In this document: one piece after another, positions 9,264 through 33,886 of the stretch
Position numbering within the stretch: position 1 is the stretch's first letter
Layout: each line of letters begins with the position of its first letter
DNA from: Candidatus Hadarchaeales archaeon
Lineage (GTDB): Archaea; Hadarchaeota; Hadarchaeia; Hadarchaeales; Hadarchaeaceae
DNA: 64,000 bases
Reading direction: 5' to 3'
NCBI GenBank assembly: GCA_038823825.1
Contig: JAWBCC010000003.1
Location: 69,351-133,350, forward strand
The notes under the pieces: model-generated
What the model was told of the DNA's origin: nothing
What the model saw: only the letters and a program-made list of their open reading frames with translations
Databases searched by the model: none
Program-made: the position numbers and the translations under genes

Positions 9264-10229
9264 TCACTTTTGGGTCTCGAAAATACATTCCTCAGGAGAT
9301 TTGTCTCTTCTTAGGCGCAAAAAAACAGGGGCTCTTAACTTGAGGTCATCAGTTACTTCTAGAAATCTCACCTCACAGACGAACTCTGGTCTAACCCATC
9401 GGACTTCGTAAGGTGGTTCCTCTTCAACTGGTTTTTCTGGAACTTCGATTTTTTTGAGTTCTGATGTGAGATATCTGATTGTTTCCTCATCAAATCCAGT
9501 TCCAACCTTCCCAAGGAAAATCAACTTTTCACGATCGTACGCTCCTATCGCAAGTGCTCCGAAGTAATCCTTCCGTTCTCCTTCCCCCGGCGTATAGCCC
9601 AAAATCACGCAGTCCATCGTCTTGAAAGTCTTGACCTTTATCCAATCCTCGCTTCTCTTCCCCTGCTGATAGGTGCTCTCGAGCTTCTTACCCATCACTC
9701 CCTCCAATCCCATCGCTTTTACGCTCTCCCACAGTCTTCTGCCATCCTCAGTATACATGCAGAGTCTCAGACGTTCGCTTTCTTTCACGATCTCTGAAAG
9801 TTTCTGCTTTCTTTCTCTGAGTGGTTTGTTTGTCATATCTTCTTCATTGGCAAGCAGAACGTCGAACGCGAAAATAACAGCCGGGTACATTTTGGAAAGT
9901 AGCTCTATTTTGAGTGGATGCTCCTGCTGTTCTCTAAGCTGCAAGAGTTGAAAATCTGGCTTGTTGTTTTTATCGAGCACAACGATCTCGCAGTCGAGAA
10001 TGCAGGGGTCGGCGAGGATGTTTCTGTGAATGCCTGAAAGTTCAGGATATCTGTGTTCAATCCACTTCTTTCTTCTGTTCAGAATTTTTATCCTCTCACC
10101 TTTTTTGTAAACGATCGCTCTTGTTCCGTCGAGCTTAGGTTCCCAGATGTAGTGGGGTTTGCTGAGATCATTTTCGCTTCCCAGCCTTGCAAGCATCGGG
10201 CTTATGATGGGTGGCCAGTCTGAGTTCAT
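9264..10229 (-). CDS. ligD: ATP-dependent DNA ligase, LigD ligase-domain type (NHEJ ligase)
   Basis: 321 aa with the KLDGTRAIVYKKG motif I (KxDG). Size matches a stand-alone LigD LigDom. It overlaps the upstream Ku gene by 4 nt (ATGA), which indicates an operon. Confidence 0.8.
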   Translation of the reverse strand: MNSDWPPIISPMLARLGSENDLSKPHYIWEPKLDGTRAIVYKKGERIKILNRRKKWIEHRYPELSGIHRNILADPCILDCEIVVLDKNNKPDFQLLQLREQQEHPLKIELLSKMYPAVIFAFDVLLANEEDMTNKPLRERKQKLSEIVKESERLRLCMYTEDGRRLWESVKAMGLEGVMGKKLESTYQQGKRSEDWIKVKTFKTMDCVILGYTPGEGERKDYFGALAIGAYDREKLIFLGKVGTGFDEETIRYLTSELKKIEVPEKPVEEEPPYEVRWVRPEFVCEVRFLEVTDDLKLRAPVFLRLRRDKSPEECIFETQK

Positions 10230-11044
10230 ACCTCGGTTACCTTCTTCTTTTCAGCGATTCGTAAACTCTCCTCTAGGGCTTTCATGAGATCCACGGTTGT
10301 CGGTGCTTCGGCCGGTTTCTCAAGTTTTATAGCAGCTCCTTCAGCCTTTCCTCTGATCAATTCGAGCAACGCTTCCCGGTATGCATCTTTAAGTTCCTCT
10401 GGTCTAAATTCTCCTTTCATCTGCTCTATCAGCTTTTTAGCAAGATCTCTTTCCCTATCCGAGGTTTCCGGAATTCTCTGGATTTCTGTCAGTTCATCTG
10501 TAGGAACGATTTCGTCGAAATAGTGAAGAAGGGTTAGATGAAGACAGTTCTGTCCGGGCCTTATCACAACCGGATATTCTTTATTCCGAAGGGTGAGCTT
10601 CCCGAGAGCAGCGGACCCTGTCTCTGCGAGAGCATGGAAAAGCAATCCATAAGCTCTCTCTCCACCCTCCTCGGGAGCGACGTAGTAATGCTCAGAGAAG
10701 TAAGTCACGTCTATGTCTCTAATTTCAATGAAATTCGAAATTTCAATGATTTTTGTGCTTTTAACTTTAATACCTTCCAATTCTTCTTCTGTTACTTCGA
10801 TAAACTTATCTTTAGCAAGCTCGAATGCCTTTACGAGTTCTTCGTCTGCAAGTTCTTTCTGGCATTTTGTGCACCACTTCTTGTATTTTACCGGTGTTTT
10901 GCACTCCTTGTGAATTAGATGAAATGAGATAGACTTGTCTCTCGTTGCTTTGTAAAGCTTGACGGGTATGTTGACGAGACCGAAAGATATTGCTCCTCTC
11001 CAAATTGCTCTAGGCATATCCTTCCCCCAAAAGAAACCTTCCAA
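10226..11044 (-). CDS. ku: Ku DNA end-binding protein
   Basis: N-terminus MPRAIWRGAISFGLVNIPVKLYKATRDKSISFHL is the canonical prokaryotic Ku start. 272 aa with an acidic/basic C-terminal tail. Confidence 0.85.
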   Translation of the reverse strand: MEGFFWGKDMPRAIWRGAISFGLVNIPVKLYKATRDKSISFHLIHKECKTPVKYKKWCTKCQKELADEELVKAFELAKDKFIEVTEEELEGIKVKSTKIIEISNFIEIRDIDVTYFSEHYYVAPEEGGERAYGLLFHALAETGSAALGKLTLRNKEYPVVIRPGQNCLHLTLLHYFDEIVPTDELTEIQRIPETSDRERDLAKKLIEQMKGEFRPEELKDAYREALLELIRGKAEGAAIKLEKPAEAPTTVDLMKALEESLRIAEKKKVTEV

Positions 11045-16806: not shown

Positions 16807-17916
16807 ATGAAAAGAGTGGGTGTTGCGGAGCTTCCTCTTCATGGCGGGAAATGTCCTCCTTGGCTTTTCGGCAGGATGAAGAGACTTGGGGGCGCTATTG
16901 CGGAGCTCATCGTCAGAGAGTACGGGAGGAAGGAGTTTCTCCGCAGGCTGGGAGATCCGTTTTTCCTCCAGTCTCTTGGTTGTGTTTTGGGTTATGATTG
17001 GCATAGCTCTGGTTTGACGACTGTGACGATGGGTGCTCTTAAAGAGGCACTTGCTGAGAGGGATCTTGGGATAGTCGTCTGCGGCGGAAAGGGTCTGGTT
17101 TCAAGGAGGACGCCGGACGAGATAGAGAAGGTTGCGGAGAAGTTCTCTTTCTCGACCGCGGAGAAGGAGAGGCTGAAGTATGCGAGTAGGATGGTTGCGA
17201 AGGTGGACAATGCTTGTGTTCAGGATGGATATCAGCTTTACCATCATACTTTCGTTTTGAGTGAGGATGGGGACTGGGCGGTTGTTCAGCAGGGGATGAG
17301 GGAGAAGTTTGCTAGGCGGTATCATTGGATATCGGAGGGTTTGAAGAGCTTCGTGGAGGAGCCGCATTCGGGGATAGCTGGAGAGAGAAAGGAGGATGTT
17401 GTTTTGGATATGACGGCTGAGGAGAGCGAAGAGGCGAGGAAGACGAGCGTGGATTTGGTGAGGGAGAACCCGAGGAGACTTCTCTCTTATGTTAGGGGTG
17501 CGGAGCAGAAGCTTTTGGATGAGTATCTGGAGAAGAAGCCGGAGGTTAAGGTTCTTCTCATGCCTGCGGGGCACAGGATATCGGAGTTGACGGAAAAGAC
17601 GATTGCGGCGCTTAAGAGGGCTTACGAGATTCAGCCTGAGAATTATGAAGAGCTAGTGGCAATAAAGGGAATTGGTCCGAAGGCGATAAGGGCTCTTGCT
17701 CTTGTCTCAGCGGTTATCTATGGGAAGCCGCCATCTTGGAAGGATCCTGTGAGGTATAGCTTCGCGCATGGAGGGAAGGACGGGATTCCGTATCCTGTTG
17801 ATAGGAAAACATATCAGACGACGATCGAGATTCTCGAAGAGGCGATAGAGGGAATGGAAGCTGGGAAGGAGGAGAAAATCCGAGCTCTTCGGAGACTTCA
17901 CGAGTTTGTTGGGTAG
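16807..17916 (+). CDS. DUF763 family protein
   Basis: N-terminal MKRVGVAELPLHGGKCPPWLFGRMKRLGG is the signature start of DUF763 (PF05559) proteins. 369 aa. Confidence 0.55.
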   Translation: MKRVGVAELPLHGGKCPPWLFGRMKRLGGAIAELIVREYGRKEFLRRLGDPFFLQSLGCVLGYDWHSSGLTTVTMGALKEALAERDLGIVVCGGKGLVSRRTPDEIEKVAEKFSFSTAEKERLKYASRMVAKVDNACVQDGYQLYHHTFVLSEDGDWAVVQQGMREKFARRYHWISEGLKSFVEEPHSGIAGERKEDVVLDMTAEESEEARKTSVDLVRENPRRLLSYVRGAEQKLLDEYLEKKPEVKVLLMPAGHRISELTEKTIAALKRAYEIQPENYEELVAIKGIGPKAIRALALVSAVIYGKPPSWKDPVRYSFAHGGKDGIPYPVDRKTYQTTIEILEEAIEGMEAGKEEKIRALRRLHEFVG

Positions 17917-18337
17917 TGCACAGCTGTGCATAATTTCGCTTCATTCACAAATTTGACTAGGGTTGAGTTCACAGCTGTGCATTCCCTTATAAACCGCTTT
18001 CAACTGATGGATCGGTGGGAGTGCACAGCTGTGCACGGTCGAGTAATTCTTTTCACGTGGGAGCTTAAGGAGAGCTCAAAATCTCGGCGTTGGTTTTACG
18101 CAAATCTCAGGCGACTGCTGGATGAGCTTCCGCGAAACAGCTGGTGTAAACTTGGGGGTTCGGTCTATCTCGTGGAAAAACGATATTCTGTGAGATTTCT
18201 AATGCTTCTCAAAAAGTTTGAAGGACCGGAACTAACGTGGTATTCGTTCGAGATAGTGCGTCAGGTTTGAGTTCACAGCTGTGCACAACGCCCCCGCTGA
18301 TCACGGGAAATCCCACCACAGCAGTGCACAGCTGTGC
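17917..18337. repeat. Array of five ~21-bp direct repeats, each ending in a perfect 14-bp palindrome T(G/T)CACAGCTGTGCA. They fall in two phased groups.
   Basis: Copies at 17917-17930, 17968-17981, 18022-18035, 18272-18285 and 18324-18337. Each is preceded by GGTTGAG/GGTGGGAG/GGTTTGAG-like flanks. Spacings are 51, 54 and 52 bp within groups. A 250-bp gap between the groups holds the body of a small ORF. Confidence 0.75.
18007..18270 (+). CDS. Hypothetical small protein (87 aa from the internal ATG) embedded in the palindrome array
   Basis: ORF track 17926..18270. The first 27 codons of the GTG-start version run through repeats 1-2 and are likely non-coding. The core RVILFTWELKESSKSRRWFYANLRRLLDEL...GGSVYLVEKRYSVRF has a beta-alpha pattern that loosely recalls Cas2/VapD-like ferredoxin folds. 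This is a weak pattern match only. Confidence 0.3.
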   Translation: MDRWECTAVHGRVILFTWELKESSKSRRWFYANLRRLLDELPRNSWCKLGGSVYLVEKRYSVRFLMLLKKFEGPELTWYSFEIVRQV

Positions 18338-18388
18338 ATAGTTTCGTGTGCGTAAATTCTAAAAATCGGTGAATAGATGTAGAAATGG

Positions 18389-18479
18389 GCCCGCGGTAGC
18401 TCAGCTTGGTAGAGCGGCCGGCTGTAGACCCGTCGGCCGAAACCGGCATGTCGGGAGTTCAAATCTCCCCCGCGGGACC
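18389..18479 (+). tRNA. tRNA-Tyr (anticodon GTA) with a ~14-nt intron at the canonical 37/38 position
   Basis: Acceptor CCCGCGG/CCGCGGG. D arm GCTC...GAGC. Anticodon stem GCCGG with loop CTGTAGA gives GTA. The 3' half of the anticodon stem (CCGGC) appears only after an inserted CCCGTCGGCCGAAA. T arm GGGAG-TTCAAAT-CTCCC. CCA encoded. Confidence 0.8.
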
Positions 18480-18502
18480 ATGAGTCCATTTCAATCGCCT
18501 GC

Positions 18503-19306
18503 TTAAGGATGACTGGAGAACACTGGAATCGGGGCCGCTTTCGTACACTTTTCCCGATATCCGCACGCACCACATTTTTCAGCTTTTCTGGTCGGTTTGG
18601 CGTTTCTTCTTTCCTCCCAAAACGGTATCGCCCATTCAAGCTTTTCGATTGCGCTTTCCAGCGAGAAGGGGTACATCCAGACCACTAGTCCAGGAATGTC
18701 GAGATCAACCGGTTCTTTTTTATACAGTTCAGGTATGCTCAGCATGCATATTGTCTGGTTGAGACTCTCGATCTTTTCTCTGTTCAGATCGTGTGGTGCT
18801 ACAGAGATGGCGTATCTCAGCTCAGAAGTTTCGAAGCCAAGGTCATGGAGAAGATATCCGTAAACCAGAGCCTGAACGTGATAACTCGGAAAAATCTTCG
18901 GCTTTCTGGAAAACTTGTATTCGATGAGCAGCGTGGGTTTTCTGCGCCTGAAGAGTATATAGTCCGGTCTACCTGCGATTACGCATTCCCGGTACTTTCC
19001 GAGTAGAAGCATAGAAGCCCCAACCGTTGGCTTTTGAAATATGTCTCTCCAGAGATCCTCTCTTTTTACAGGAATCATGCCGGAAAGAGTCAGTTCATGC
19101 TTTTCATCACCCTTTTCCATTTCTTGGGTCTGAATCTTCCCGTAGGTGTATTTGAGTTCCACTTTTTTCTCGCAATAAAACTGTTCTGCTATCTCCGAGG
19201 CATTCACAAAATGTAGTCCAAAGCGGAGCCTTTTTTTACTCTCTTTTGCTTCCTCCAGCAATGACATAAATCTTCTAAACGGTTTCCACCTTTTCATGGA
19301 ACCCAC
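18503..19306 (-). CDS. Cas4-family (DUF83) PD-(D/E)xK nuclease with a 4-Cys Fe-S cluster. It stands alone; no CRISPR array or other cas genes are in the window.
   Basis: N-terminal Cys in SEIAEQFYCEKK. Nuclease motifs GRPDYILF (D), LLIEYKFS (ExK) and YHVQALVYGYLL (QxxxY). C-terminal CGACGYREKC supplies three more Cys. Confidence 0.7.
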   Translation of the reverse strand: MGSMKRWKPFRRFMSLLEEAKESKKRLRFGLHFVNASEIAEQFYCEKKVELKYTYGKIQTQEMEKGDEKHELTLSGMIPVKREDLWRDIFQKPTVGASMLLLGKYRECVIAGRPDYILFRRRKPTLLIEYKFSRKPKIFPSYHVQALVYGYLLHDLGFETSELRYAISVAPHDLNREKIESLNQTICMLSIPELYKKEPVDLDIPGLVVWMYPFSLESAIEKLEWAIPFWEERRNAKPTRKAEKCGACGYREKCTKAAPIPVFSSHP

Positions 19307-19388
19307 AAAACTAAATTAGGGTTTTGTCATAAAATACGCTTGGGCAGTTAACAAGATCCCACAAACGAGAGTAGTTTTTTAAATTTCG

Positions 19389-19826
19389 TTGTTTATAAAG
19401 GAGCTTCATTCAATCAGCTTGTGGGTTGTTTTGTCAGGTGTTCGGATATCATCGCCGCATGACATATTTGCTCTCGTAAAAGGAGATTTCTCGAATGATA
19501 GCGAAAAGGTGGAGCTTGTAATGCTAGATTCGATGTGCAACGTTCTCGCAAAGGAAATTGTTTCCGAGGGAAGCGAGAACTCGGCTCCCCTCCATCCCCG
19601 TCAAGTGCTTGCCGTGGCTCTTCGATATCCGACGGTTTTCATTGTTCTTGTTCATAACCATCCGAAAGGTTGTGTGGAACCCAGCGAGGAGGATATAGAG
19701 GTAACGAGGAAAATTGCAAAGGCTGGAAAAATGGTTGGCGTTTACCTACTCGATCACCTGATAATTGGGAATGGGAAATTCTTTAGTTTCCTTCAGCAAG
19801 GTCTAATTTCTCCTTCAATTAGATAA
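19389..19826 (+). CDS. RadC-like JAB/MPN domain protein
   Basis: JAMM-type motif VLVHNHPKGCVEPSEEDIEVTRKIAKAGKMVGVYLLDHLII (HxHPxG...S..D) typical of RadC/DUF2466. Divergently transcribed from the Cas4-like gene. TATA-like boxes lie in the 80-bp spacer. Confidence 0.75.
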   Translation: MFIKELHSISLWVVLSGVRISSPHDIFALVKGDFSNDSEKVELVMLDSMCNVLAKEIVSEGSENSAPLHPRQVLAVALRYPTVFIVLVHNHPKGCVEPSEEDIEVTRKIAKAGKMVGVYLLDHLIIGNGKFFSFLQQGLISPSIR

Positions 19827-19864
19827 GCAGAAATTAAAGCTGCTTATCAGATAAGTTTATATGC

Positions 19865-21646
19865 ATGAAAGAAGAAAATTATAAGATTAATTTGGCAAAA
19901 AGAATCGACAGATGGCTAGAAAATAGGCGAATTTTGCTCATGAAAACTTTTGGGACTAGAGAATTTACCCGTAGAGAAGCTACAGATGTCCTAAAAGAAA
20001 AATTTGGTGATGATGAGAAAGCAGTTGCTGCAGTTCTCTCGGAGTTAAAGCATGCTGGTTATCTCGAGATGAGACCGGATCCTACTGACGCCAGGAAAAC
20101 GATATACTGCCTAAAAGAAGTCAAGATTCTCAAGCCTGAAACAGAGGAGCTGACAAGGGATGAGCTAGAATCGCTCCTAAAAAGAGCCGCGGATCTCATA
20201 CGAACTCGTGTTGATTACAAGTTCATTCTCATTCTGCTCTTTCTCAAGAGAATAAGTGATAAGTGGGAGATGGAGTTTAAACAGGTTTACGAGCAGCTTC
20301 TCCGGAATGGACTTTCGGAGGAAGAAGCCGAGGAGGAAGCTAAGAGCAGCATCTACCACGAGTTTGATTTGCCTGAGAAGTTCCTTTGGGAAAACCTTCG
20401 CAAAGATGTGGCTAGACTCCCGGAGAGACTCGCTGAATGTCTCAAAACCCTCGCCGAACGCAACCCGGAGTTGAAGGATGTGGTGGATAGGGGAGATTTT
20501 CTCCAGTTTGCGAGAAGTTCGGAAAATGCGGAGATTTTGAGGCAGCTTGTTGAACTCTTCAGTTCTCGCAAGCTCCACCACGTTTCTCCCGATGTGCTCG
20601 GAGACGCGTATGAATGGGTTTTGAGGTACTTTGCTCCGGAAAAGGCGAAAGAGGGAGAAATCTACACACCAAGGGAGGTCATAAAACTGCTCGTTGAGAT
20701 TTTGAATCCGAAATCTGGAGAATCTGTTTATGATCCAGCGTGCGGATCGGGTGGAATGCTCATTTTGTCGTTCAAGAATGTGGAGGAAAAGGAGGGGAGG
20801 GAGGCAACCCGAAAGCTCTCCTTGTACGGACAGGAGGCAAACCGGGAGATTTTCGCTCTCTGCAAAATGAATATGTACATCCACGATATTAGGGATGTCA
20901 ACATTGAGTGGGGTGATACGCTTCTCTATCCAAAGTTCATTGAGGGGAACAGGCCAAAGACTTTCGACGTTGTGATGGCGAATCCACCTTGGAATCAGGA
21001 TGGTTATCACGAGGAGGTTCTGAAGAAGGGAGAGTTCTGGGGAGAGAGGTTTGTCTACGGTTTCCCGCCCAAACAGTCTGCGGACTGGGCATGGATTCAG
21101 CATATGCTGGCTTCCGCCGACGGGAAAAACGGAAGGGTTGGGGTTGTTATAGACAACGGTTGTCTGTTCAGGGGAGGGAAGGAGCGGGCAATAAGGGAGA
21201 GGGTGCTGAGAGATGACCTGCTGGAGTGCGTGATCCTTCTGCCGGAGAAGCTCTTTTATAACACCGGAGCCCCGGGAGCCATTCTGATTTTCCGTAAACA
21301 TAAGCCAGCCGAGAGGAAGGGGAAGATCCTGTTCATTAACGCGAGCCAGGAGTATGAGAAGCATCCAGAGGTGAGGAAGCTGAACAGGCTTGGGGAGGCA
21401 AACATAAGGAAGATCGCTGAGGCCTACAGGAACTTCAAGGATGTTGAGGGTTTCGCCAGAGTGGTTTCGCTGGGGGAGGTGAGGGAGAACGATTACAATC
21501 TAAACGTCACGCTGTACGTCTTTCCGGAGGAGAAGGTCGAGGAGATAGACGTGGCGAAGGAGTGGGAGGAACTCCGCAAGATTGAGAAGGAAATTACAGA
21601 GGTTGAGGAGAAGATTCAGGGATATTTGAGGGAGGTTGGAGGTTAA
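19865..21646 (+). CDS. hsdM: Type I restriction-modification system methyltransferase subunit HsdM
   Basis: N6-adenine MTase motifs DPACGSGGML (motif I) and ANPPWNQDGY (motif IV, NPPW). Typical N-terminal HsdM domain. 593 aa. Confidence 0.9.
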   Translation: MKEENYKINLAKRIDRWLENRRILLMKTFGTREFTRREATDVLKEKFGDDEKAVAAVLSELKHAGYLEMRPDPTDARKTIYCLKEVKILKPETEELTRDELESLLKRAADLIRTRVDYKFILILLFLKRISDKWEMEFKQVYEQLLRNGLSEEEAEEEAKSSIYHEFDLPEKFLWENLRKDVARLPERLAECLKTLAERNPELKDVVDRGDFLQFARSSENAEILRQLVELFSSRKLHHVSPDVLGDAYEWVLRYFAPEKAKEGEIYTPREVIKLLVEILNPKSGESVYDPACGSGGMLILSFKNVEEKEGREATRKLSLYGQEANREIFALCKMNMYIHDIRDVNIEWGDTLLYPKFIEGNRPKTFDVVMANPPWNQDGYHEEVLKKGEFWGERFVYGFPPKQSADWAWIQHMLASADGKNGRVGVVIDNGCLFRGGKERAIRERVLRDDLLECVILLPEKLFYNTGAPGAILIFRKHKPAERKGKILFINASQEYEKHPEVRKLNRLGEANIRKIAEAYRNFKDVEGFARVVSLGEVRENDYNLNVTLYVFPEEKVEEIDVAKEWEELRKIEKEITEVEEKIQGYLREVGG

Positions 21647-22301
21647 ACAAATGAAAAGATCAAATGATGAGATTCGCGAGTTAATTCTAAGAGAATTATA
21701 TGAAGTTCACAAAAAAGCTAGGAGTCTAAAAGCCACGGGAAAAAGCATAAGCGAGTTGAAACGCCAACTTAAGAAGCAATATGGACTAAGTGAAAAAGAA
21801 ATTGTGCCCAATCTTGATTTTTTAATCCAATGCGGTTGGGTAAAGGTAGAGAAAGAAACATCCGAGTTTAAAACTCCAAGAGGGTTTATAAAGAAACAGG
21901 AGAAAGGTATCTTCAAAATTTCAGATATGGGTATCAACTATTTTGAAGGACAATCCAAATTCCAAAGGATAGAGAGATCGCTTGCTGGTATAAACATAAC
22001 TAATATAGGTGGGGTCACAGTCTTAGGGGACGGAAATGTAGTTGTAAATGTAAACTATGTTGATTTATACAAAGAACTGTCTATGCTTTCAGAGATCATA
22101 AGAAAAAGTGATCAACTCAAAGATGTTGACAAATTAAACTACATCGCGGAAATTGAAACAATAAAATCCCAGTTGATGAAACCGGAACCTGACAAGAACA
22201 TAATAAAGCAAGCTTGGGAAAAACTAAAGCCACTTGCAACTATTGCTGGCATAGCTTCGTTTTTCGAGCGAGTTGTTAAATTAATGGGGGCATTGTTTTG
22301 A
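21636..22301 (+). CDS. Uncharacterized 221-aa protein embedded between hsdM and hsdS (N-terminal wHTH-like region, C-terminal coiled-coil/Gly-rich region)
   Basis: Overlaps hsdM by 11 nt and hsdS by 4 nt, so it is translationally coupled inside the R-M operon. Very AT-rich coding sequence. No recognizable catalytic motif. Confidence 0.5.
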   Translation: MEVKQMKRSNDEIRELILRELYEVHKKARSLKATGKSISELKRQLKKQYGLSEKEIVPNLDFLIQCGWVKVEKETSEFKTPRGFIKKQEKGIFKISDMGINYFEGQSKFQRIERSLAGINITNIGGVTVLGDGNVVVNVNYVDLYKELSMLSEIIRKSDQLKDVDKLNYIAEIETIKSQLMKPEPDKNIIKQAWEKLKPLATIAGIASFFERVVKLMGALF

Positions 22302-23563
22302 AAACCGGTTACAAACAAACGCCAATCGGTAGTATCCCGAAGGAGTGGGAGGTTGTCAGGCTTGGGGATATTTCTAAGGTATCTTCGGGGAATACAGCAC
22401 CGCAAGATAAAAAATATTTTGAAAATGGGAAATATCCTTTCATAAGAGTTCAGCACCTTAGTACATTGCTAGAAAATAAATATCCTATTATTTGCGATTT
22501 TGTAAATGACTTGGCTGTTGAGGAACTCAAATTGAAAAAATTCAAGAAAGGTTCTATAATATTTCCGAAAAGCGGGGAGTCTATAAGGCTTGAAAAAAGG
22601 GCGATACTAAGAGAGGATTCCTATGTGGTAAACCACTTAGTTGTTGTCGAAGTTTTTTCAAATAACGTAGATACAAACTTTTTATATTATTATTTGTCAA
22701 GCCTCAGAACAAGTAGTTACCTTTCTAAAACTACAATGCCATCACTCAATCTTTCAGTCATTAAATCATTTTTAATCCCCCTCCCACCCCTCCCCGAGCA
22801 ACGTAAGATCGCCGAGATCCTCTCAACAGTCGACCAAGCCATCCAGAAGGTGGACGAAGCCATAGCCCGGACTGAGAGGTTGAAGCGTGGGCTGATGCAG
22901 AGGCTGCTCACCCGGGGTATAGGGCACAGGGAGTTCAAGGACACGGAGATAGGGAGGATTCCGAGGAAGTGGGAGGTTGTCAGGCTTGGAGACAAAAAAA
23001 TTACAGAAGAACTTTTCTACGGTATAACCGCTAAAGCTGTCGATAAGGATACTGGAGTAAAAATGTTGAGAACTACGGATATCAAAGAGTATTCTGTGGA
23101 CTGGGAAAAACTTCCTTTTTGTGAAATCACTGAAAGGAGGGGTAACTTAACTAGATATCTTCTGAAGAAAGGAGACCTGATTGTAGCAAGGGCTGGAACT
23201 GTGGGCGTTTCTATTCTTGTGGATAGAGATTTTGACAACGTGATTTTCGGATCATATCTGATAAAAGTGAAGCTAAAACCAAGCATACATCCAAAATTTG
23301 TTCACTATTTCTTCCAATCCTCACTTTATTGGAAACACCTGCAAAAGGCTCAAGGAAGTACTTTAAAAAACGTAAACCTGCCTTTGTTAAAATCTCTCAA
23401 GATCCCCCTCCCACCCCTCCCCGAGCAGCGCAAGATCGCCGAGATCTTCTCAATCGTCGACAAAAAGCTCGAACTCGAAAGAAAAAGGAAGGAAAAACTC
23501 GAGCGGATCAAGAGGGGTCTGATGAACGATTTGCTCACCGGGAAAAAGAGGGTGAAGATATGA
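22298..23563 (+). CDS. hsdS: Type I R-M specificity subunit HsdS (two target-recognition domains)
   Basis: Duplicated conserved segments: IGSIPKEWEVVRLGD and IGRIPRKWEVVRLGD open the two TRDs. LIPLPPLPEQRKIAEILSTVD and KIPLPPLPEQRKIAEIFSIVD form the central and C-terminal conserved coiled-coil regions. Confidence 0.85.
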   Translation: MKTGYKQTPIGSIPKEWEVVRLGDISKVSSGNTAPQDKKYFENGKYPFIRVQHLSTLLENKYPIICDFVNDLAVEELKLKKFKKGSIIFPKSGESIRLEKRAILREDSYVVNHLVVVEVFSNNVDTNFLYYYLSSLRTSSYLSKTTMPSLNLSVIKSFLIPLPPLPEQRKIAEILSTVDQAIQKVDEAIARTERLKRGLMQRLLTRGIGHREFKDTEIGRIPRKWEVVRLGDKKITEELFYGITAKAVDKDTGVKMLRTTDIKEYSVDWEKLPFCEITERRGNLTRYLLKKGDLIVARAGTVGVSILVDRDFDNVIFGSYLIKVKLKPSIHPKFVHYFFQSSLYWKHLQKAQGSTLKNVNLPLLKSLKIPLPPLPEQRKIAEIFSIVDKKLELERKRKEKLERIKRGLMNDLLTGKKRVKI

Positions 23564-24534
23564 TTGACCAACATTTGGAAAAAGAAAGAGTGATCGTGGA
23601 CGAAAAATTAAAACAAAATGAAGAGACCAAAGTATACGAAATTTTTCGTGAAGTTATGAAGAGTTATCTCGGAGTAGAAATAGAAAAAGAAAAGGCAGGA
23701 CGAATTTTAGAATTTTTCATGACAGTAATGTATAACTTGACTTTGAATCCAAGCGCCATCGTTAGAGGGTACTACCTTTGCGCAGAGCAAGATTATGAAG
23801 CCGCTAAGTTATTGAGTAAAAAATTTCCCTCCCTCGCCGTTTTTCATTTACAACAGACCGTAGAAAAAATAACTAAAGCTTACGCGCTCCACATGGGATT
23901 GATAAAAGAAGAAGAATCGTATAAAAAACGAGGAAATAAAGTCGGGACCGAAGTTGTTGGTCATATCTCACCTAAGGCTTTTATTTTGTTGTTGAAGAAA
24001 AGAGGCGCTGCAGAATTCGTCGATACGGTTTTTCTTGCATGTCCAGAAATTCCCAAAATAACTGTTAAAGAAGTTCTTCAAAAATTCGAAAAATTACTAC
24101 AAAAAACGGATGAATTGGCAAAACTCTCAAAAAATGAAATAAACCATTTTATAAAAAGATGCGAAGACATCCAAGACGCCATTAGAAAAATTGACATCAG
24201 GAAAACAAGGGAAAATTTCAAACGCCTCAAAGTAGGGTTTATTGCAAGACTAAGATCTGCGGTTTCACCAGAGATAGTTGAAGATATCAAGAAAAAATTT
24301 AACGCGATAGAAAGGAAGATCGGTTCAATAATCAATGAACTTCTAACGTTTTCGCAACTATATGCTCTGGCGATAATCACCTTTCCGCACTTCTCCTACA
24401 GTCGATACCCTGGAGGCAAAATAACATTTGCTGACTATCACGAAGGGCTGGGTATAGTAGATTCTCTCGATGATATTTTGATCTCTATCGGTTCTATTAT
24501 GAAAAGTCTAGAAAAAATTTGTGCGAGAGGGTGA
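23560..24534 (+). CDS. HEPN-like domain protein (324 aa) inserted between hsdS and hsdR, in the PrrC position
   Basis: Start ATG at 23560 overlaps the hsdS stop (ATGA). AEQDYEAAKLLSKKFPSLAVFHLQQTVEKITKAYALHMG matches the PF05168-type HEPN N-terminal helix pattern (A..D...A..LL..g.y..a.f.a.Qa.EKalKA). A C-terminal SRYPGG recalls the HEPN RYPd motif but sits after an unusually long ~200-aa insert. Confidence 0.4.
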   Translation: MIDQHLEKERVIVDEKLKQNEETKVYEIFREVMKSYLGVEIEKEKAGRILEFFMTVMYNLTLNPSAIVRGYYLCAEQDYEAAKLLSKKFPSLAVFHLQQTVEKITKAYALHMGLIKEEESYKKRGNKVGTEVVGHISPKAFILLLKKRGAAEFVDTVFLACPEIPKITVKEVLQKFEKLLQKTDELAKLSKNEINHFIKRCEDIQDAIRKIDIRKTRENFKRLKVGFIARLRSAVSPEIVEDIKKKFNAIERKIGSIINELLTFSQLYALAIITFPHFSYSRYPGGKITFADYHEGLGIVDSLDDILISIGSIMKSLEKICARG

Positions 24535-24536
24535 AA

Positions 24537-27500
24537 ATGCCAATCTTTACCGAAAAATCCACTGTTGAAAGCTACATCATAGAAAAGCTGAAGGAAAAAG
24601 GCTGGAAGCATGTTCCCGGAGAAGAATTAGAGCGAGAAGACTACTCCGAACCGCTTTTGGTGAGGCATCTTCTTGAAGCAATCCACAGAATAAACCCCCA
24701 CCTAACCCTGACAAAAAAGGATCTGGACAGAATTCTGCTAGAACTCAGGAGCCTTCCATCCACATTTGATGGTTCCAAGCGACTGCTCAAGTTCCTAAAA
24801 GAAGGAATCCCAATAGAACTGGAAAAAACAGGAGAACTCAGATATGTCTCTCTGCTCGATTACGAAAACCCAAAGGAGAAAAACGAGTTCATCGTAAGCG
24901 ACCAAGTACCTTTCCACGGGCCTAAAGAAAGATGTAGACTTGACATAGTCCTCTACGTAAACGGAATCCCGCTTGTAGCAATAGAGTGCAAAAACCCGAC
25001 CGACCCGACCAGAGACTGGGAAACTGCCTATAAACAGATAAAATCTTACGAAAAGGCTGTCCCAGAACTCTTCAAGTATGTCCAGTTCAGCATAGCCGCC
25101 GCCGCGACCACCAGATATTTCCCGAACGTCTTAGGAGCCGAGGATGTCAAAATCTACTTCCCTAAAGGGAAAGATACTCCCGAGTCCCTGGATCGAACAC
25201 TTGACCTCCTCCTAAATCCAGACGCTCTCCTCGATCTTGTTGCAAACTTCATTTTCGCGAGGGAAGAGCATGGAAAGTTCACAAAAGTTTTGCCCTACTA
25301 CTACCAGTACGAAGGCGCCAACCAAATCTACCAAAGAGTCCTTAACAACCTGTCTGAGAAGGAAAAAAAAGAGAAGGGGTTGATCTGGCATTGGCAGGGT
25401 TCCGGAAAAACCCTCACGATGATTTACGCCGCCCGTAAACTTTACCTTTGCCCCCTGCTTGAAAACCCCACCATCTTCTTCGTCGTCGACAGAGAGGAGC
25501 TTGAGGAGCAACTGTTTAAAGAATTTTCTTTCTTAGACCTCGGCATACCCTCACCTGAGGTCATTTCTTCGATCGAGCACCTCCGTCAGATTCTGACCTA
25601 TGACGAGGGAAGAGGAAAGAGGGGGATGTTCATCACTCTCATTCACAAGTTCGGCGAAAAGCTTGCCGATCTCGTTTTTGAGGACAAGGACATGAAAAAC
25701 ATTTCAAACAGGAGAAACGTCATCGTTTTAATAGACGAGGGACATCGGACGCAGTACGGAGAGTATGCCGGCCGTATGCGAGGCATACTCAAGAAAGCTT
25801 TCTTCTTCGCTTTCACGGGAACTCCTTTCTCCACGAAAAAGAGAGATACCTTCGCCGCTTTTGCTTATCCCGAGGAGGGCGAACTCTATCTTCACAAATA
25901 TTTTGTCCGAGAATCAATTGAAGACGGTTTTACCCTCCCCATTGTTTTCCAGACTAGGATGGAAAAAGAGGTCGGCCTAGAAAAAGAACTACTGGAAGAG
26001 TTTTTGGAGCAAGAGCTGGAGGAAATCACCGAAGAATCCCTCCGCCTCGCCCTAGAAGGAAAAATCAGCAGACGATTGACCCAGATCGTTGTATTCTTTG
26101 AGAATCCAGAAAGAATAGAAAAGATTGCCAGCGATATCGCCACTCATTTCAAGGAAAACGTGGACGGAAAGTTCAAAGGCATGGTTGTGGCGGCTTCAAG
26201 AAAAGCGTGCATCTATTATAAGGAGGCTCTCGATCGGCTGCTGGGACCGGAATACTCCGAGATTGTTATGACGTTCAATCCTCGCACGGACCCCGAACCG
26301 ATCAAATCCTATTACGAAAAGTTGAGGCAGAAATATCATGGCAAGGAGATTGAGGAAATCTGGGATGAGATAATCGAGAAGTTCAAAGAAAGGGAATATC
26401 CGAAAATTTTAATCGTCACGGACAAACTTCTGACAGGTTTTGATGCTCCAATTCTCCAAGTGATGTATCTAGACAAGCCGCTGAAGGAACATAGGCTTCT
26501 TCAAGCAATAGCAAGAACCAATCGTCCATTCAAAGAACTAAAACCAGCGGGTCTCATCATAGACTATGTCGGAATTCTCAAAGAATTCGAAAAAGCCGTG
26601 GCCATTTACGAAAAGCAGGATATTCAGTACGTAGGCTTCAAGCCGGAAGAAAAGATAGATGAGCTTCGAAAGCTTATCAGCGATGCGGAGGAGACCCTTG
26701 AGGGTGTGGATAAAACAAAAACCGATTTTGAAACTCTTAAAGCCGCAGCAAAACTGCTCTTTCATTATCCAGAAAAGCAGAGAAAATTCTCCCAAACGTA
26801 CAAACAGGCTAGAAATCTTTACGAGTTTCTTCTCCCCTTCGGGCTGGACAAGAAGACTGTGGAGAGATTCAAATGGCTGGCCGCAGTCTACAACTTTCAT
26901 CGCCAATGGGTGGAGCAGGAGAAGTCAGAGGAAATGGAAGAAAACTTTAGAAAATTCTATCCAAGAGTTGTTGAGCGCGTTCACAAGGCCATCCAAATAG
27001 AAATGAAAGAAGAGTTTCCAAGTTTAACGCTTGATAAAGAATATCTTGAACGGTTGGGCAGATTGGGTTTAGAAGACCAAGTTTATAACATGGTTTTCGG
27101 TCTAAACAAATATATCCGCGTAGACCGTCCGTTCAGTCCTATTTATGAACCAATCGCCAAACGCGTGGAAAAACTAGTTGAAAGGTGGCGAAACAAAAAG
27201 ATTTCGGTCGAGGAGGCTTATAACGAAGCAGTTTCCATTTTGCAGGAAACGAGAAAAACCGAGGAGAGAATAAAAACGCTCGGATTCTCAGAGCCAGAAT
27301 ACTTCATTCTCAAAGTTCTTGAAAAGGAACTGGGAGAATCTGAGGATCTAGTCCAAGAAGTCCGGAGTCTCTGGAGAAAATGGGAGAAGACTGGAAAAAT
27401 ATTCCCAGGATGGACTCGAAAAATGAGTATCCTAAAGGAACTCGTGCGAGATATAAGAATGTTCATGGTAAAGAAAGGTATCCCACTTAAAAGGAGGGAA

Positions 27501-27545
27501 GAGCTCTGTGAGGAGATCATCAACGGACTCAAGGCCACTTCATAA
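24537..27545 (+). CDS. hsdR: Type I R-M restriction subunit HsdR (SF2 helicase/endonuclease)
   Basis: Walker A WQGSGKT, DEAH-box VLIDEGHRTQ, helicase C-terminal motifs (QAIARTNR), ~1000 aa. Start taken at the ATG at 24537 (MPIFTEK...). Confidence 0.9.
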   Translation: MPIFTEKSTVESYIIEKLKEKGWKHVPGEELEREDYSEPLLVRHLLEAIHRINPHLTLTKKDLDRILLELRSLPSTFDGSKRLLKFLKEGIPIELEKTGELRYVSLLDYENPKEKNEFIVSDQVPFHGPKERCRLDIVLYVNGIPLVAIECKNPTDPTRDWETAYKQIKSYEKAVPELFKYVQFSIAAAATTRYFPNVLGAEDVKIYFPKGKDTPESLDRTLDLLLNPDALLDLVANFIFAREEHGKFTKVLPYYYQYEGANQIYQRVLNNLSEKEKKEKGLIWHWQGSGKTLTMIYAARKLYLCPLLENPTIFFVVDREELEEQLFKEFSFLDLGIPSPEVISSIEHLRQILTYDEGRGKRGMFITLIHKFGEKLADLVFEDKDMKNISNRRNVIVLIDEGHRTQYGEYAGRMRGILKKAFFFAFTGTPFSTKKRDTFAAFAYPEEGELYLHKYFVRESIEDGFTLPIVFQTRMEKEVGLEKELLEEFLEQELEEITEESLRLALEGKISRRLTQIVVFFENPERIEKIASDIATHFKENVDGKFKGMVVAASRKACIYYKEALDRLLGPEYSEIVMTFNPRTDPEPIKSYYEKLRQKYHGKEIEEIWDEIIEKFKEREYPKILIVTDKLLTGFDAPILQVMYLDKPLKEHRLLQAIARTNRPFKELKPAGLIIDYVGILKEFEKAVAIYEKQDIQYVGFKPEEKIDELRKLISDAEETLEGVDKTKTDFETLKAAAKLLFHYPEKQRKFSQTYKQARNLYEFLLPFGLDKKTVERFKWLAAVYNFHRQWVEQEKSEEMEENFRKFYPRVVERVHKAIQIEMKEEFPSLTLDKEYLERLGRLGLEDQVYNMVFGLNKYIRVDRPFSPIYEPIAKRVEKLVERWRNKKISVEEAYNEAVSILQETRKTEERIKTLGFSEPEYFILKVLEKELGESEDLVQEVRSLWRKWEKTGKIFPGWTRKMSILKELVRDIRMFMVKKGIPLKRREELCEEIINGLKATS

Positions 27546-28269
27546 AGTGCTGAGGATAGAAGGAGAAAGCATACCTTATACTGTCGAATGGAGGAAAGTG
27601 AAATATCCGCGTTTGGAACTGAAAACCGGGAAGCTAAAGATAATTCTTCCAAAAGGAGTAAAGGACGAAACACCCATTCTGGAAAGAAATCTCCAGTGGA
27701 TACTTAAAAGGCATGAAGAAATCAAGAGGGCAAAGGAGAACATAGCAAACTCCTTGAGCGGAAATGGGATTCTCATCTTCGGCTCTTTCTATAAAGTCGA
27801 GCCGGGCATACCCCTCGTCATTTTCCTGAACGGGATACAGAAAAAGTTCGACCTGATGAAAGAAAGAGACCAGGTTAAACTAAGAAACTTTCTAAAAAAG
27901 ATTCTGAGAGAGGAGCTGAGGAAGTTAGTGAACCACTATTCATCAAAATTTGGTCTGAGATTCGGAAGAATATACATAAGAAACCAGAAAACAAAATGGG
28001 CAAGTTGTTCCTCCTCGGGTAACCTGAGCTTTAACTTCCGGCTTGTTCACGTACCATATGATATTTTAAAGTATGTTGTCTGTCATGAGGTTCTTCACCT
28101 AGCTGAAAAAGGTCATTCGAAAAAATTCTGGGAAAAAATCAGAGAGGAGTTTCCAAACTACAAAGAGATGGAGAAAAAACTTTTCGAATACTGGTTTTTC
28201 ACGATGGATTCCCAATTTCCAGATATTCGTTTTATTGGAAAGCGAAAAACCTCAAGAAATTTGGAATGA
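27508..28269 (+). CDS. DUF45/YgjP-like (WLM/SprT-like) zinc metallopeptidase, commonly linked to type I R-M hsdR
   Basis: HExxH motif in VVCHEVLHLAEKGHSKKFWEKI. Size and placement immediately after hsdR (overlapping its 3' end) are typical of this family. Confidence 0.7.
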   Translation: MRRSSTDSRPLHKVLRIEGESIPYTVEWRKVKYPRLELKTGKLKIILPKGVKDETPILERNLQWILKRHEEIKRAKENIANSLSGNGILIFGSFYKVEPGIPLVIFLNGIQKKFDLMKERDQVKLRNFLKKILREELRKLVNHYSSKFGLRFGRIYIRNQKTKWASCSSSGNLSFNFRLVHVPYDILKYVVCHEVLHLAEKGHSKKFWEKIREEFPNYKEMEKKLFEYWFFTMDSQFPDIRFIGKRKTSRNLE

Positions 28270-32615: not shown

Positions 32616-32804
32616 ATGAGGCTGAAAGGACCGAAGTGCATGATCTGTGGGGAGAAGATACAGATAATGAGTATGGACTCGGCCTACGTGAAGTTTGTTA
32701 GACCTGGCGAAGCCAAAGGAATCTTCATCTGCTGGAAGTGTGCTGAAAAGGAGTTCGGCGAAGTCCTGCAGGATATCCTGACAAAGGTCGCTGGTAAGGG
32801 GTGA
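32616..32804 (+). CDS. Small zinc-ribbon protein (62 aa, CxxC...CxxC), translationally coupled to the downstream AEP gene
   Basis: CMICGEK...CWKCAEKE. Stop overlaps the start of the next gene by 4 nt. Confidence 0.45.
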   Translation: MRLKGPKCMICGEKIQIMSMDSAYVKFVRPGEAKGIFICWKCAEKEFGEVLQDILTKVAGKG

Positions 32805-33886
32805 TCTCCTTGACGGTCACTCCCCAAGATCACATCCTGATGACCCTAGCCATCAAAAGGATAGGAAAATTCGTAGATCTCGAACACATAAGGGAAAAGC
32901 TCTGCAGGGACGGAGGAAGGGATTTCTCTCTGGAAGAGACGAAGATGCTTTTAGATTCATTGATCGGAAAGGGTCTCGTGCAGGAGAAAGGAGGGGAGTA
33001 CGCTCTCACGGAAAAGGGCCGCGACTTTTTCGAGAAAAGATGGAGAGAAGTTAAAGATCATCTGAATCAAGACTATCTAAAGGTCTACCGGGCAAAGCGA
33101 TATTACCCCCATGTTTCTAAAACCATCCTAGAGTTCTGCAAGGACAGATACGTTTCAGTTTTCAGGCTCTTTACAGACCGTGCCTGGCTTCAAAGGAAAC
33201 TCGGTCCCCGCTGGATAACGATAAAGAGCGAGGACGACATACAATACTGGCTGGACATTCACGGCATCGATTTCATCCCCTACATTCACAGAATTGGAAG
33301 CGATAGGCCCGACTGGCTCGTCATAGATTTTGACGCCGGAAAGAAAGTAGAGTTCGAGCAGACGAAGAAGGTTGTCATGACAGCCGCCGAAGTTTTACAT
33401 AATTACGGAATCGAGGTTGCGTTGAAGTTCAGCGGTTCCCGTGGCTTCCAGCTTTGGGCGGTTTTCGAGCCTCACGATCTGCCGACAGATTACCAACCAA
33501 AAAAGCTGAAAACGGAACGCAGGGAACGAAACTTTTTCACCTTTTACTCGGATATCATAAGATTTGTCGAAAGCAGAGTAGCGAAAAAACTCCCGAATCT
33601 CACAACCTCGGAAACGGCGAAAAAAGAAGAGAGGGAAGACAAAGTCCTCCTCGACGCCTCCATAATAAAGCCGATGGGAGACGTCAGGGCTCCCTATTCC
33701 ATGCATCACCGAACTGGTCTCATTTCCATGCCAGTGGGTTTAGATGAGCTAGAGGAATTCGAACCCAAGCAGGCAGATCCAGATCTTGTCGTTCAGCGCT
33801 ATAGGAAAAGGGGAAACGAATTTAAGCTCAAGCCTTGTGATGGTTCAAAGTTGTTCGAAGATTTGGTCAAATGGTGCAAAGAGTAA
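32801..33886 (+). CDS. Archaeo-eukaryotic primase (AEP) superfamily primase-polymerase of the LigD PolDom / NHEJ-polymerase type, with an N-terminal winged-helix domain
   Basis: Motif I LVIDFDAG (hhhDhD). Motif II FSGSRGFQLWAVF (SGxxGxH-like, with Gln where His is usual). Motif III LLDASIIKPMGDVRAPYSMHHRTGLISMPV matches the PolDom pattern D.S....G...APYS...R.G..S.P. The N-terminal ~100 aa is wHTH-like. Confidence 0.65.
   Translation: MISLTVTPQDHILMTLAIKRIGKFVDLEHIREKLCRDGGRDFSLEETKMLLDSLIGKGLVQEKGGEYALTEKGRDFFEKRWREVKDHLNQDYLKVYRAKRYYPHVSKTILEFCKDRYVSVFRLFTDRAWLQRKLGPRWITIKSEDDIQYWLDIHGIDFIPYIHRIGSDRPDWLVIDFDAGKKVEFEQTKKVVMTAAEVLHNYGIEVALKFSGSRGFQLWAVFEPHDLPTDYQPKKLKTERRERNFFTFYSDIIRFVESRVAKKLPNLTTSETAKKEEREDKVLLDASIIKPMGDVRAPYSMHHRTGLISMPVGLDELEEFEPKQADPDLVVQRYRKRGNEFKLKPCDGSKLFEDLVKWCKE

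Follow-up and report, generated by a model that had tools for sequence, protein, structure and literature searches.

A CRISPR-independent Cas4/EXO5-like nuclease and a JAB-only RadC protein at one end of a strain-variable type I restriction-modification island in Hadarchaeales

Two adjacent genes in a Candidatus Hadarchaeales genome, transcribed away from each other, encode a Cas4-like nuclease and a RadC/JAB protein, and raise the question of what has brought them together: a common promoter and function, a CRISPR-Cas system encoded elsewhere, a mobile element, or an island that happens to carry both. The original prediction for this locus described a standalone Cas4-family nuclease paired divergently with RadC, suggested co-regulation from the spacer between them, and pointed to mobile elements and defence islands as the likely setting. 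We examined the two genes, their relatives and the surrounding stretch of DNA (64 kb, hereafter the window); the coordinates originally given for both open reading frames (ORFs) were confirmed.

A Cas4-superfamily nuclease without CRISPR-Cas

The nuclease gene (18503–19297, reverse strand; longest ORF 18503–19306, 267 aa, with the ATG at 19297 as the likely start) encodes a Cas4/Exo5-like Fe-S PD-(D/E)XK protein of 264 aa, the length at which NCBI annotates it as a 'PD-(D/E)XK nuclease family protein'. The full Cas4-like motif set that had been recognised, comprising an N-terminal Cys, D/ExK/QxxxY and the C-terminal Cys residues, is intact (C45, D115, E129-x-K131, Q145xxxY149 and C245-xx-C248-x5-C254 in the numbering of the 267-aa ORF), and these residues are invariant across an alignment of 29 sequences, with homologues 36–68% identical; the gene shows no motif loss that would mark it as a pseudogene. 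No CRISPR array was found in the 64-kb window by TRF and a short-range repeat search, and no Cas family was detected among the window ORFs in Pfam, NCBIfam and PADLOC scans (in one scan, among the 25 of 52 families listed), in agreement with the predicted absence of cas1, cas2 and arrays within 64 kb. The protein is a standalone, CRISPR-independent Fe-S-type enzyme of the Cas4 superfamily. Having the superfamily fold and motifs and no cas genes around it, it is also a solo-Cas4 if that term is taken broadly, for superfamily genes outside both CRISPR-cas loci and recognised mobile elements.

Its placement relative to Cas4 was assessed from profile cut-offs and structure comparison. Canonical Cas4 membership did not survive this assessment, with scores of 37.3 bits against TIGR00372 (cut-off 65; the N-terminal half alone was matched) and 17.8 bits against PF01930 (below the 22.7 cut-off). 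PDDEXK_1 (PF12705) was barely over its gathering cut-off (22.9 bits, cut-off 22) and Exo5 (PF09810; gathering score 25 bits) gave no match at E ≤ 0.01, the threshold at which members of the wider family matched PDDEXK_1 in 25/29 cases, Exo5 in 22/29 (best 8e-9) and Cas_Cas4 in 7/29. A profile search of PDB sequences returned human EXO5 as the sole match (E ~1e-3), with no solved Cas4 chain matched at E up to 1. The AF2 model of the nuclease has a pLDDT of 89, and Foldseek placed EXO5 7LWA first (E = 1.3e-8), followed by Cas4 7MI4. Overall, the nuclease is roughly as close to human EXO5 as it is to Cas4.

EXO5 is a eukaryotic nuclease with mitochondrial and replication-restart functions. The window nuclease resembles it (PF09810; PDB 7LW7–7LWA) in a profile match across the C-terminal W..R..CxxCx5C region, in the top Foldseek rank, in its single-domain Fe-S PD-(D/E)XK fold and similar size and, by analogy, possibly in 5' ssDNA exonuclease activity, but identity is ~14–16%, the score lies under the Pfam Exo5 cut-off and no BLM-like partner is implied. 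From CRISPR Cas4 (TIGR00372; PDB 4IC1, 7MI4, 8D3L) it differs in having no cas1, cas2 or array alongside, in its sub-cut-off scores, and in two additions to the fold, one helix at the N-terminus and a helical insertion (residues ~176–215). Solo-Cas4 proteins (Hudaiberdiev et al. 2017, PMC5704561; PMC12501428) are members of COG1468/PF01930 and include that of Methanosarcina mazei, a metal-dependent DNase with a [4Fe-4S] cluster (PMC12501428); their genes are reportedly inherited vertically for the most part (PMC5704561, PMC12501428). Like them, the window protein is an archaeal Cas4-superfamily nuclease with a four-Cys Fe-S motif encoded outside CRISPR-cas loci, but it falls under the COG1468/PF01930 cut-offs and is placed with PF12705 and PF09810, and, in contrast to mostly vertical inheritance, some near-identical strains have its gene while others lack it.

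By extrapolation from EXO5 and Cas4 enzymes, C45, C245, C248 and C254 are predicted to hold a [4Fe-4S] cluster, and D115, E129 and K131 to form a metal site at which ssDNA would be cut from a free 5' end, with the enzyme acting as a 5'-to-3' exonuclease or as an endonuclease. In a setting free of CRISPR-Cas, such an enzyme may process DNA ends in general, either during repair or to degrade foreign DNA.

RadC and the divergent spacer

The RadC gene (19419–19826, forward strand; longest ORF 19389–19826, likely start TTG at 19419) encodes a JAB-only protein of 135 aa, named 'JAB domain-containing protein' by NCBI. It matches PF04002 well above the cut-off (E = 5e-36; 123.6 vs 22.1 bits), and its translation retains an intact JAMM-type motif (H89-N-H91...S99-E-E-D102; pattern HxH-x7-S-xx-D). 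The full-length RadC models NF000642 and TIGR00608 match in the C-terminal JAB part alone and their cut-offs are not reached (117 vs 180 and 110 vs 134 bits, respectively); the protein lacks the N-terminal HhH domain, a difference from housekeeping bacterial RadC, and also lacks PF20582, which is present in 8/13 bacterial relatives found. The nearest relatives are bacterial, ~42% identical and located in unrelated elements, while in metagenome contigs relatives were found at two loci, one of them from the same organism. Relatives that are likewise JAB-only are carried by mobile elements, where they neighbour other defence genes, in one case directly following hsdM-hsdS-hsdR. The window protein thereby resembles the RadC-like JAB proteins known from mobile elements (PF04002), stand-alone JAB domains with HxH..SxxD among conflict and defence genes for which a part in nucleic-acid processing has been suggested (Iyer et al. 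2017, PMC5512222), with the difference that it is archaeal and its closest relatives, at ~42% identity, are bacterial.

The RadC stop codon is followed after 38 nt, on the same strand, by the start of hsdM, and because of this short gap and shared orientation it is more plausible that RadC opens the transcription unit to which hsdM belongs. It would be a JAB-only Zn-hydrolase, most likely co-transcribed with hsdM as an accessory of a type I restriction-modification (R-M) operon.

Between the likely starts of the nuclease and RadC lies a divergent spacer of 121 bp (19298–19418), or of 82 bp when measured between the longest ORFs, which agrees with the ~80 bp and two TATA-like boxes first described. 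The octamers are TTTATAAA (19392–19399, forward strand; 20–27 nt upstream of the RadC TTG at 19419) and TTTAAAAA (19376–19383, reverse strand), accompanied by a weaker TATA-like ATTTTATG near 19329–19336 (reverse strand). Octamers of this kind show no enrichment across the window (18 observed vs 15 expected) and therefore prove nothing by themselves. As for the divergent pair, the back-to-back arrangement is real, but the notion of a conserved unit did not hold: RadC adjoins the nuclease in 0/63 related loci, and the relatives of RadC sit in unrelated elements, with a Cas4-like neighbour in 0/3 contexts examined. The nuclease and RadC are not a conserved two-gene system.

Relatives of the nuclease and their neighbours

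The nuclease family is small, with a profile search reaching 609 cluster representatives among 1.84 billion proteins, mainly from Bathyarchaeia and Dehalococcoidia. Its 64 genomic loci come mostly from Bathyarchaeia, then from Dehalococcoidia and haloarchaea, and a tblastn search of these loci with RadC and the other proteins encoded around the window nuclease found RadC in none and hsdR/YgjP in two. De novo neighbour clustering gave no conserved neighbour for the archaeal members, and 89 neighbours scanned with Pfam and PADLOC belong to varied, mostly unrelated families, with neither cas1 nor cas2 among the neighbour families listed. Two candidate associations were rejected: tRNA adjacency is not a family trait, as tRNAs are seldom close in the 60 loci scanned, and the genes of ~700 aa found upstream of it in L001, L003 and L013, which resembled a shared partner, are mutually non-homologous. 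Only RNase H-fold or DnaQ-like exonucleases recur as partners, either fused to the nuclease (P0101, P0143) or encoded side by side with it in 10 Dehalococcoidia loci, a pattern that suggests the processing of DNA ends more than a part in CRISPR adaptation. A scan of IMG/VR (2.9 million viral contigs) with the family profile yielded no relative, and the suggestion of a viral or mobile-element clade is not borne out.

Two loci of a single Bathyarchaeia lineage (L003 and L013; 71–81% DNA identity to each other) carry a family member ~1 kb from a YgjP-hsdR-hsdS-hsdM operon. By our rough estimate ~0.1 cases of a nuclease near type I R-M would be expected in 63 loci, and set against this figure the linkage leaves room for a functional coupling to type I restriction.

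A strain-variable type I restriction-modification island

The nuclease and RadC genes form one end of a 9.7-kb type I R-M island (18506–28232) that is present or absent among sister strains, and the predicted defence-island setting is thereby substantiated. The gene order from the adjoining tRNA-Tyr gene is Cas4-like, RadC, hsdM, cargo gene, hsdS, HEPN gene, hsdR and YgjP; the original prediction was silent on both the tRNA-Tyr and the operon after RadC. With hsdM, hsdS and hsdR in one locus, this is a type I R-M system. All operon genes are on the forward strand: hsdM encodes the methyltransferase (19865–21646; N6_Mtase E = 1e-113, HsdM_N), hsdS a specificity subunit with two target-recognition halves and an internal 63-nt repeat (22298–23563; Methylase_S E = 1e-51) and hsdR the restriction subunit (24519–27545; HSDR_N and SWI2_SNF2 E = 2e-58). 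A variable slot between hsdM and hsdS holds a 221-aa cargo gene (21636–22301; GC 0.356) with weak similarity to the PADLOC candidate PDC-M14B, a 324-aa HEPN-domain protein is encoded between hsdS and hsdR (23560–24534; GC 0.363; PF05168 19.5 bits), and the last operon gene encodes a YgjP-like metallopeptidase (27508–28269), its last 37 nt lying within the conserved right flank.

Related operons keep hsdS-HEPN-hsdR-YgjP together with the variable slot, which holds different genes in other strains and relatives; the HEPN gene retains its position, and 12/15 of its homologues match PF05168. Neither a Cas4-like gene nor RadC lies upstream of hsdM in L092 and L093, the two contigs of related operons that reach there. 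Accessory genes have been described within other type I R-M operons, namely EcoprrI/PrrC and PARIS-type AAA_15 inside hsd loci (PMC12707154). The window operon is like these in its HEPN gene between hsdS and hsdR and its swappable hsdM/hsdS slot, but the HEPN protein, in which no ATPase domain was detected, is not PrrC, and neither the terminal YgjP nor the flanking RadC and Cas4-like genes belong to the systems described.

The island has a GC content of 0.431 vs 0.459 for the rest of the window; the nuclease and RadC genes are near-genomic in this respect (0.453 and 0.449), and the cargo genes differ. It is present in the window and in L070, L082, L065–L069 and L085. In L071–L075 and L077, which match the window at 99.7% identity in the flanks, a scar of ~127 nt takes its place and the tRNA-Tyr runs straight into Fe-repressor/FeoB genes. 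The scar contains diverged remnants of the first 14 codons of the nuclease (~90% identity) and of YgjP (~82%); instead of a clean attachment site, the empty allele has a patchwork left by deletion. L082 retains the Cas4-like, RadC and hsdM genes at 99.2% identity and then carries different cargo, the 221-aa gene being replaced by an AAA_15 ATPase. The empty and the island haplotype occur together in one metagenome (JGI 3300008000), the source of both L073 (empty) and L085 (island). The island is kept, re-cargoed or deleted among nearly identical strains. Since the scar retains nuclease and YgjP remnants and two haplotypes share the Cas4-like/RadC/hsdM arm, the nuclease and the R-M genes have long shared a common locus.

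The conserved left anchor of the island is tRNA-Tyr(GTA) (18390–18480, forward strand; ARAGORN; Rfam RF00005, 56 bits), which is 91 nt long vs 76–78 nt for the other three tRNAs of the window, is convergent with the nuclease gene and ends 22 nt from its stop codon. Between a DUF763 gene and this tRNA, at the left border of the island and outside the Cas4-like/RadC pair, the palindrome (A)GTGCACAGCTGTGCA(C) occurs five times (17915–18346; 5 matches vs 0.06 expected by chance), and two sister-strain indels (18016–18083 and 18036–18322) have end points at or near palindrome copies. A 114-aa ORF at 17926–18270 is probably no gene, as it spans the palindrome array and is broken by the sister-strain indels. 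No direct repeats were found across 18.3–34.5 kb, no repeat of the tRNA 3' end in the whole window with up to 3 mismatches, and no integrase, recombinase, transposase or replication gene in 18.5–28.3 kb; the island thus lacks the integrase or recombinase and the tRNA 3'-end repeat by which a tRNA-integrated mobile element is recognised.

Alternative explanations

We favour, with modest confidence, the explanation that the two genes adjoin through the organisation of a defence island and do not constitute a dedicated two-component system. An alternative that we consider unlikely is that the type I R-M system uses the nuclease as an accessory enzyme, which would load on HsdR-cut ends of invading DNA and degrade them as a substitute for RecBCD/AddAB, with RadC as a further accessory or regulator. 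The nuclease and the operon co-occupy the island in two haplotypes, the nuclease and YgjP remnants in the scar imply that the combination is old, and the YgjP-hsdR-hsdS-hsdM linkage in the Bathyarchaeia loci L003 and L013 is a second, independent one. Precedents for a Cas4-superfamily nuclease located with non-CRISPR, DNA-targeting defence are UvrD-Cas4 fusions beside type III R-M (PMC5704561) and ACE1, which is reported to work with long-A Argonautes (PMC12094033). However, type I R-M is missing within ~8 kb in 61/63 related loci, the related hsdS-HEPN-hsdR-YgjP operons have no nuclease in the two contigs reaching upstream of hsdM, and the nuclease gene lies outside the operon on the opposite strand, at its hsdM end here vs the YgjP end in L003/L013. 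That the Cas4-like protein and RadC form a co-regulated defence or anti-defence module with a common divergent promoter appears decidedly unlikely: the divergent arrangement across a 121-bp spacer with TATA-like boxes, the retention of both genes in both island haplotypes and their near-genomic GC, from which the cargo genes differ, would fit such a module, but the want of RadC adjacency across the family, the three RadC relatives with other neighbours and the ordinary frequency of the octamers all speak against it, and the position of RadC 38 nt from hsdM is a better fit to the hsdM operon.

It is very improbable that the pair is the remnant of a decayed mobile element at the tRNA-Tyr, combining a recombination Cas4 with a conjugative-type RadC and carrying the R-M operon as cargo. 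The island begins directly downstream of the tRNA 3' end and varies in presence among strains, and JAB-only RadC relatives occur in elements that also encode integrases, D5 primases or serine recombinases, but mobility and replication genes, a tRNA 3'-end repeat and flanking direct repeats are all missing from the island, the empty allele is a patchwork scar, and the 2.9 million viral contigs hold no relative of the nuclease. We give almost no credence to a role as a trans-acting adaptation Cas4 for a CRISPR-Cas locus elsewhere in the genome, given the scores under curated Cas4 cut-offs, a profile whose reach is confined to the 609 representatives and to EXO5 in the PDB, the lack of cas1 and cas2 among the neighbour families listed for family members, and the absence of the gene from sister strains.

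Implications

The locus is a well-delimited case of kinds already described, namely a CRISPR-independent Cas4-superfamily nuclease, a RadC/JAB protein and a type I island with swappable cargo, in which the nuclease belongs to a family intermediate between Cas4 and EXO5. The series of presence, re-cargoing and deletion within one hot-spring Hadarchaeales population should be useful for the study of defence-island turnover in uncultured archaea. A more speculative proposal, and one we hold to be improbable, is that type I restriction in archaea has a dedicated partner for end processing in this nuclease, perhaps together with RadC. The enzyme would load on HsdR breaks, and the restricted DNA would then be destroyed or made into signalling or guide fragments. 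To our knowledge, archaea have neither RecBCD nor AddAB. If the proposal were true, the nuclease would fill the role of these complexes, which would explain both its persistence in diverged alleles and its recurrence in Bathyarchaeia, and its cooperation with type I restriction would give archaea a means of disposing of restricted DNA without RecBCD.

Identity of the divergent gene pair

The two divergent open reading frames of the original prediction are both present, with the nuclease on the minus strand (18503–19306; residue numbers follow this 267-aa ORF) and RadC on the plus strand (19389–19826). The likeliest starts, an ATG at 19297 and a TTG at 19419, give products of 264 and 135 aa, named by NCBI 'PD-(D/E)XK nuclease family protein' and 'JAB domain-containing protein', respectively. 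RadC matches PF04002 (E=5e-36), with metal-site residues read as H89-N-H91-x7-S99-x2-D102, while its biochemical function is uncharacterised (PMC5512222; PMC11981726). The spacer, predicted at about 80 bp with TATA-like boxes, measures 82 bp between the longest ORFs or 121 bp between the likely starts, and the octamers TTTAAAAA (19376–19383, minus strand) and TTTATAAA (19392–19399) were both found. As such octamers occur near chance frequency across the window (18 found vs 15 expected), these two are putative promoter elements only. The position of TTTATAAA, 20–27 nt upstream of the TTG, would fit leaderless transcription of RadC and counts against a RadC start at 19389.

The full set of nuclease and cysteine motifs is intact, as predicted (C45, D115, E129-x-K131, Q145xxxY149 and C245-xx-C248-x5-C254), and does not vary among 29 aligned homologues sharing 36–68% identity with the window nuclease. 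A canonical Cas4 is ruled out by curated profiles, with scores below cut-off for TIGR00372 (37 vs 65 bits) and PF01930 (17.8 vs 22.7 bits); PF12705 (PDDEXK_1) is matched at 22.9 bits (cut-off 22). Among 29 family members, PDDEXK_1 was matched by 25, Exo5 by 22 and Cas_Cas4 by 7, and a search of all PDB sequences with the family profile retrieved only human EXO5, via the C-terminal W..R..CxxCx5C region. Together, these comparisons place the protein firmly within the Fe-S PD-(D/E)XK clade (Cas4, Exo5, Dna2, AddB), in a family of its own, so that the proposed Cas4 identity holds at the level of the clade. The family is small: a search of 1.84 billion proteins gave 609 cluster representatives at E≤1e-3, falling to 146 at E≤1e-30, and the family profile found no viral relatives in 2.9 million viral contigs.

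The type I restriction-modification island and its haplotypes

The nuclease and RadC lie within a 9.7-kb strain-variable segment (18506–28232) of this Candidatus Hadarchaeales archaeon from hot-spring metagenomes, with a GC content of 0.431 vs 0.459 in the remaining window. A tRNA-Tyr(GTA) gene of 91 nt has its 3' end 22 nt away from the nuclease stop codon; RadC precedes hsdM by 38 nt on the same strand, followed by a 221-aa gene, hsdS, a HEPN-domain gene, hsdR and a YgjP-like metallopeptidase gene. GC content is near the genome average in the nuclease and RadC and about 0.36 in two embedded cargo genes, one encoding the weakly PDC-M14B-like 221-aa protein (21636–22301; GC 0.356) and the other the 324-aa HEPN protein (23560–24534; GC 0.363), whose start overlaps the stop codon of hsdS (ATGA). 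The HEPN arrangement, between hsdS and hsdR, resembles PrrC-type guards of type I restriction-modification (R-M), yet no ATPase domain was detected in the HEPN protein. Related archaeal operons (L092–L095) share a conserved hsdS-HEPN-hsdR-YgjP core preceded by a slot of variable content, which lies between hsdM and hsdS where the contig includes hsdM (window, L092, L093). This slot holds the 221-aa gene in the window, PIN-like proteins in L092 and L093, a TIR and an AAA_15/OLD-TOPRIM protein in L094 and EVE/ASCH-like proteins in L095.

Besides the island of the window and its absence in sister strains, a third haplotype (L082) keeps the nuclease, RadC and hsdM at 99.2% identity, but has an AAA_15/SMC_N ATPase (L082:5323–5905) directly after hsdM. 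In six sister-strain contigs (L071–L075, L077), whose flanks are 99.7% identical to the window, tRNA-Tyr leads straight to the genes for the Fe-dependent repressor and FeoB (at 28.3 kb in the window), with about 127 nt between the conserved flanks. This sequence comprises 6 unmatched nt, a copy (~90% identity) of 19256–19327, spanning the first 14 nuclease codons and ~30 nt upstream, and 55 nt resembling the YgjP interior (27796–27851; ~82% identity; alignment score 64 vs ≤34 for shuffled sequence). These remnants indicate that the empty state was produced by deletions in a diverged island allele, which already had the nuclease at one end and YgjP at the other. An attachment site is ruled out for the empty allele, which is a scar with gene remnants; no integrase was found in the island and no tRNA-end repeat in the window. 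Island (L085) and empty (L073) alleles occur in the same metagenome (JGI 3300008000), and contig breaks at the tRNA or within RadC are common among the assemblies, as expected of a polymorphic site.

Five copies (0–1 mismatch) of the palindrome TGCACAGCTGTGCA lie between the DUF763 gene and tRNA-Tyr (17915–18346; 0.06 expected by chance), in two groups with ~51–54 nt spacing, and it is absent elsewhere in the 64 kb. Sister-strain indels (18016–18083 and 18036–18322) end at or near these copies, which may serve as an array of operators or be a repeat prone to recombination; a 114-aa ORF across them is probably spurious. The window also encodes a bacterial-type NHEJ set (9264–11044, 32801–33886), with Ku and an ATP-dependent DNA ligase (LigD-type) paired on one side of the island and a LigD PrimPol domain protein on the other. 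The 1972-aa protein encoded after a tRNA-Ala gene (1110–7028) is a probable giant surface protein, carrying nine NosD/beta-helix repeats as well as Big_1, invasin and fn3 domains.

Genomic context and proposed role of the nuclease family

Restricting the survey to one genome per species gave 64 family loci, most from Bathyarchaeia, followed by Dehalococcoidia, a few haloarchaea and others. No neighbour common to archaeal members was found, tRNA genes are rarely close, and 89 flanking genes scanned with Pfam and PADLOC combine metabolic and membrane functions with an occasional defence gene. Only exonucleases of the RNase H-fold or DnaQ-like type recur as partners: an RNase_H_2 (PF13482) domain is fused to the nuclease in either order (P0101, P0143), and in 10 Dehalococcoidia loci (within L036–L059) a DnaQ-like gene adjoins it. 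These partners point to a family role in DNA-end processing. One Bathyarchaeia lineage (L003 and L013; mutual DNA identity 71–81%) carries a homologue in a dense cluster of defence-type genes (L003:35–3963; L013:4238–9410), ~1 kb away from a YgjP-hsdR-hsdS-hsdM operon; its neighbours include a 717-aa PLD-like nuclease, MazF, a UvrD helicase with Top1-type zinc ribbons and a NucS_C/DUF5655 protein; the L013 operon embeds a protein with a FokI cleavage domain.

This Bathyarchaeia linkage, with the long co-residence of nuclease and R-M genes in Hadarchaeales, favours a nuclease that processes HsdR-made DNA ends, but 61 of 63 family loci lack R-M genes, and neither the nuclease nor RadC lies upstream of hsdM in L092 and L093, the only two related contigs reaching there. 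Such processing appears unlikely, and a dedicated end-processing partner of archaeal type I restriction is still harder to credit. RadC adjoins the nuclease in none of the 63 family loci, which speaks against the proposed two-gene module, now improbable. JAB-only RadC relatives are only ~42% identical; one immediately follows hsdM-hsdS-hsdR in an element that also encodes a D5 primase and serine recombinases, and another lies beside McrB and SRA-HNH genes in an integrase-bearing element. RadC is thus loosely associated with restriction loci and with mobile elements. Despite the adjacent tRNA, a decayed tRNA-integrated element is very doubtful. No CRISPR array was found in the window and no Cas family among the listed profile matches of its ORFs, in line with the original prediction, and a Cas4 serving CRISPR adaptation in trans is highly implausible.

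We therefore favour, with moderate confidence, an autonomous, CRISPR-independent nuclease, predicted to be an Fe-S enzyme acting on 5' ends of ssDNA, as a single gene of a defence island. RadC would be an accessory gene heading a putative hsdM transcription unit, and the divergent arrangement a by-product of island organisation. The data directly show the gene content, motifs, fold, island borders, haplotypes and absence of conserved linkage, whereas enzymatic activity, Fe-S binding, operon structure and role are inferred. The family context agrees with published 'solo' Cas4-family genes, whose enzymes are described as independent of CRISPR and as having uncharacterised functions in repair or defence (PMC5704561), such as Solo-Cas4 of M. 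mazei (PMC12501428). While precedents exist for solo Cas4-family nucleases, for RadC/JAB genes at conflict loci and for accessory genes embedded in type I R-M islands, this island offers a neat population-level series of presence, re-cargo and deletion.
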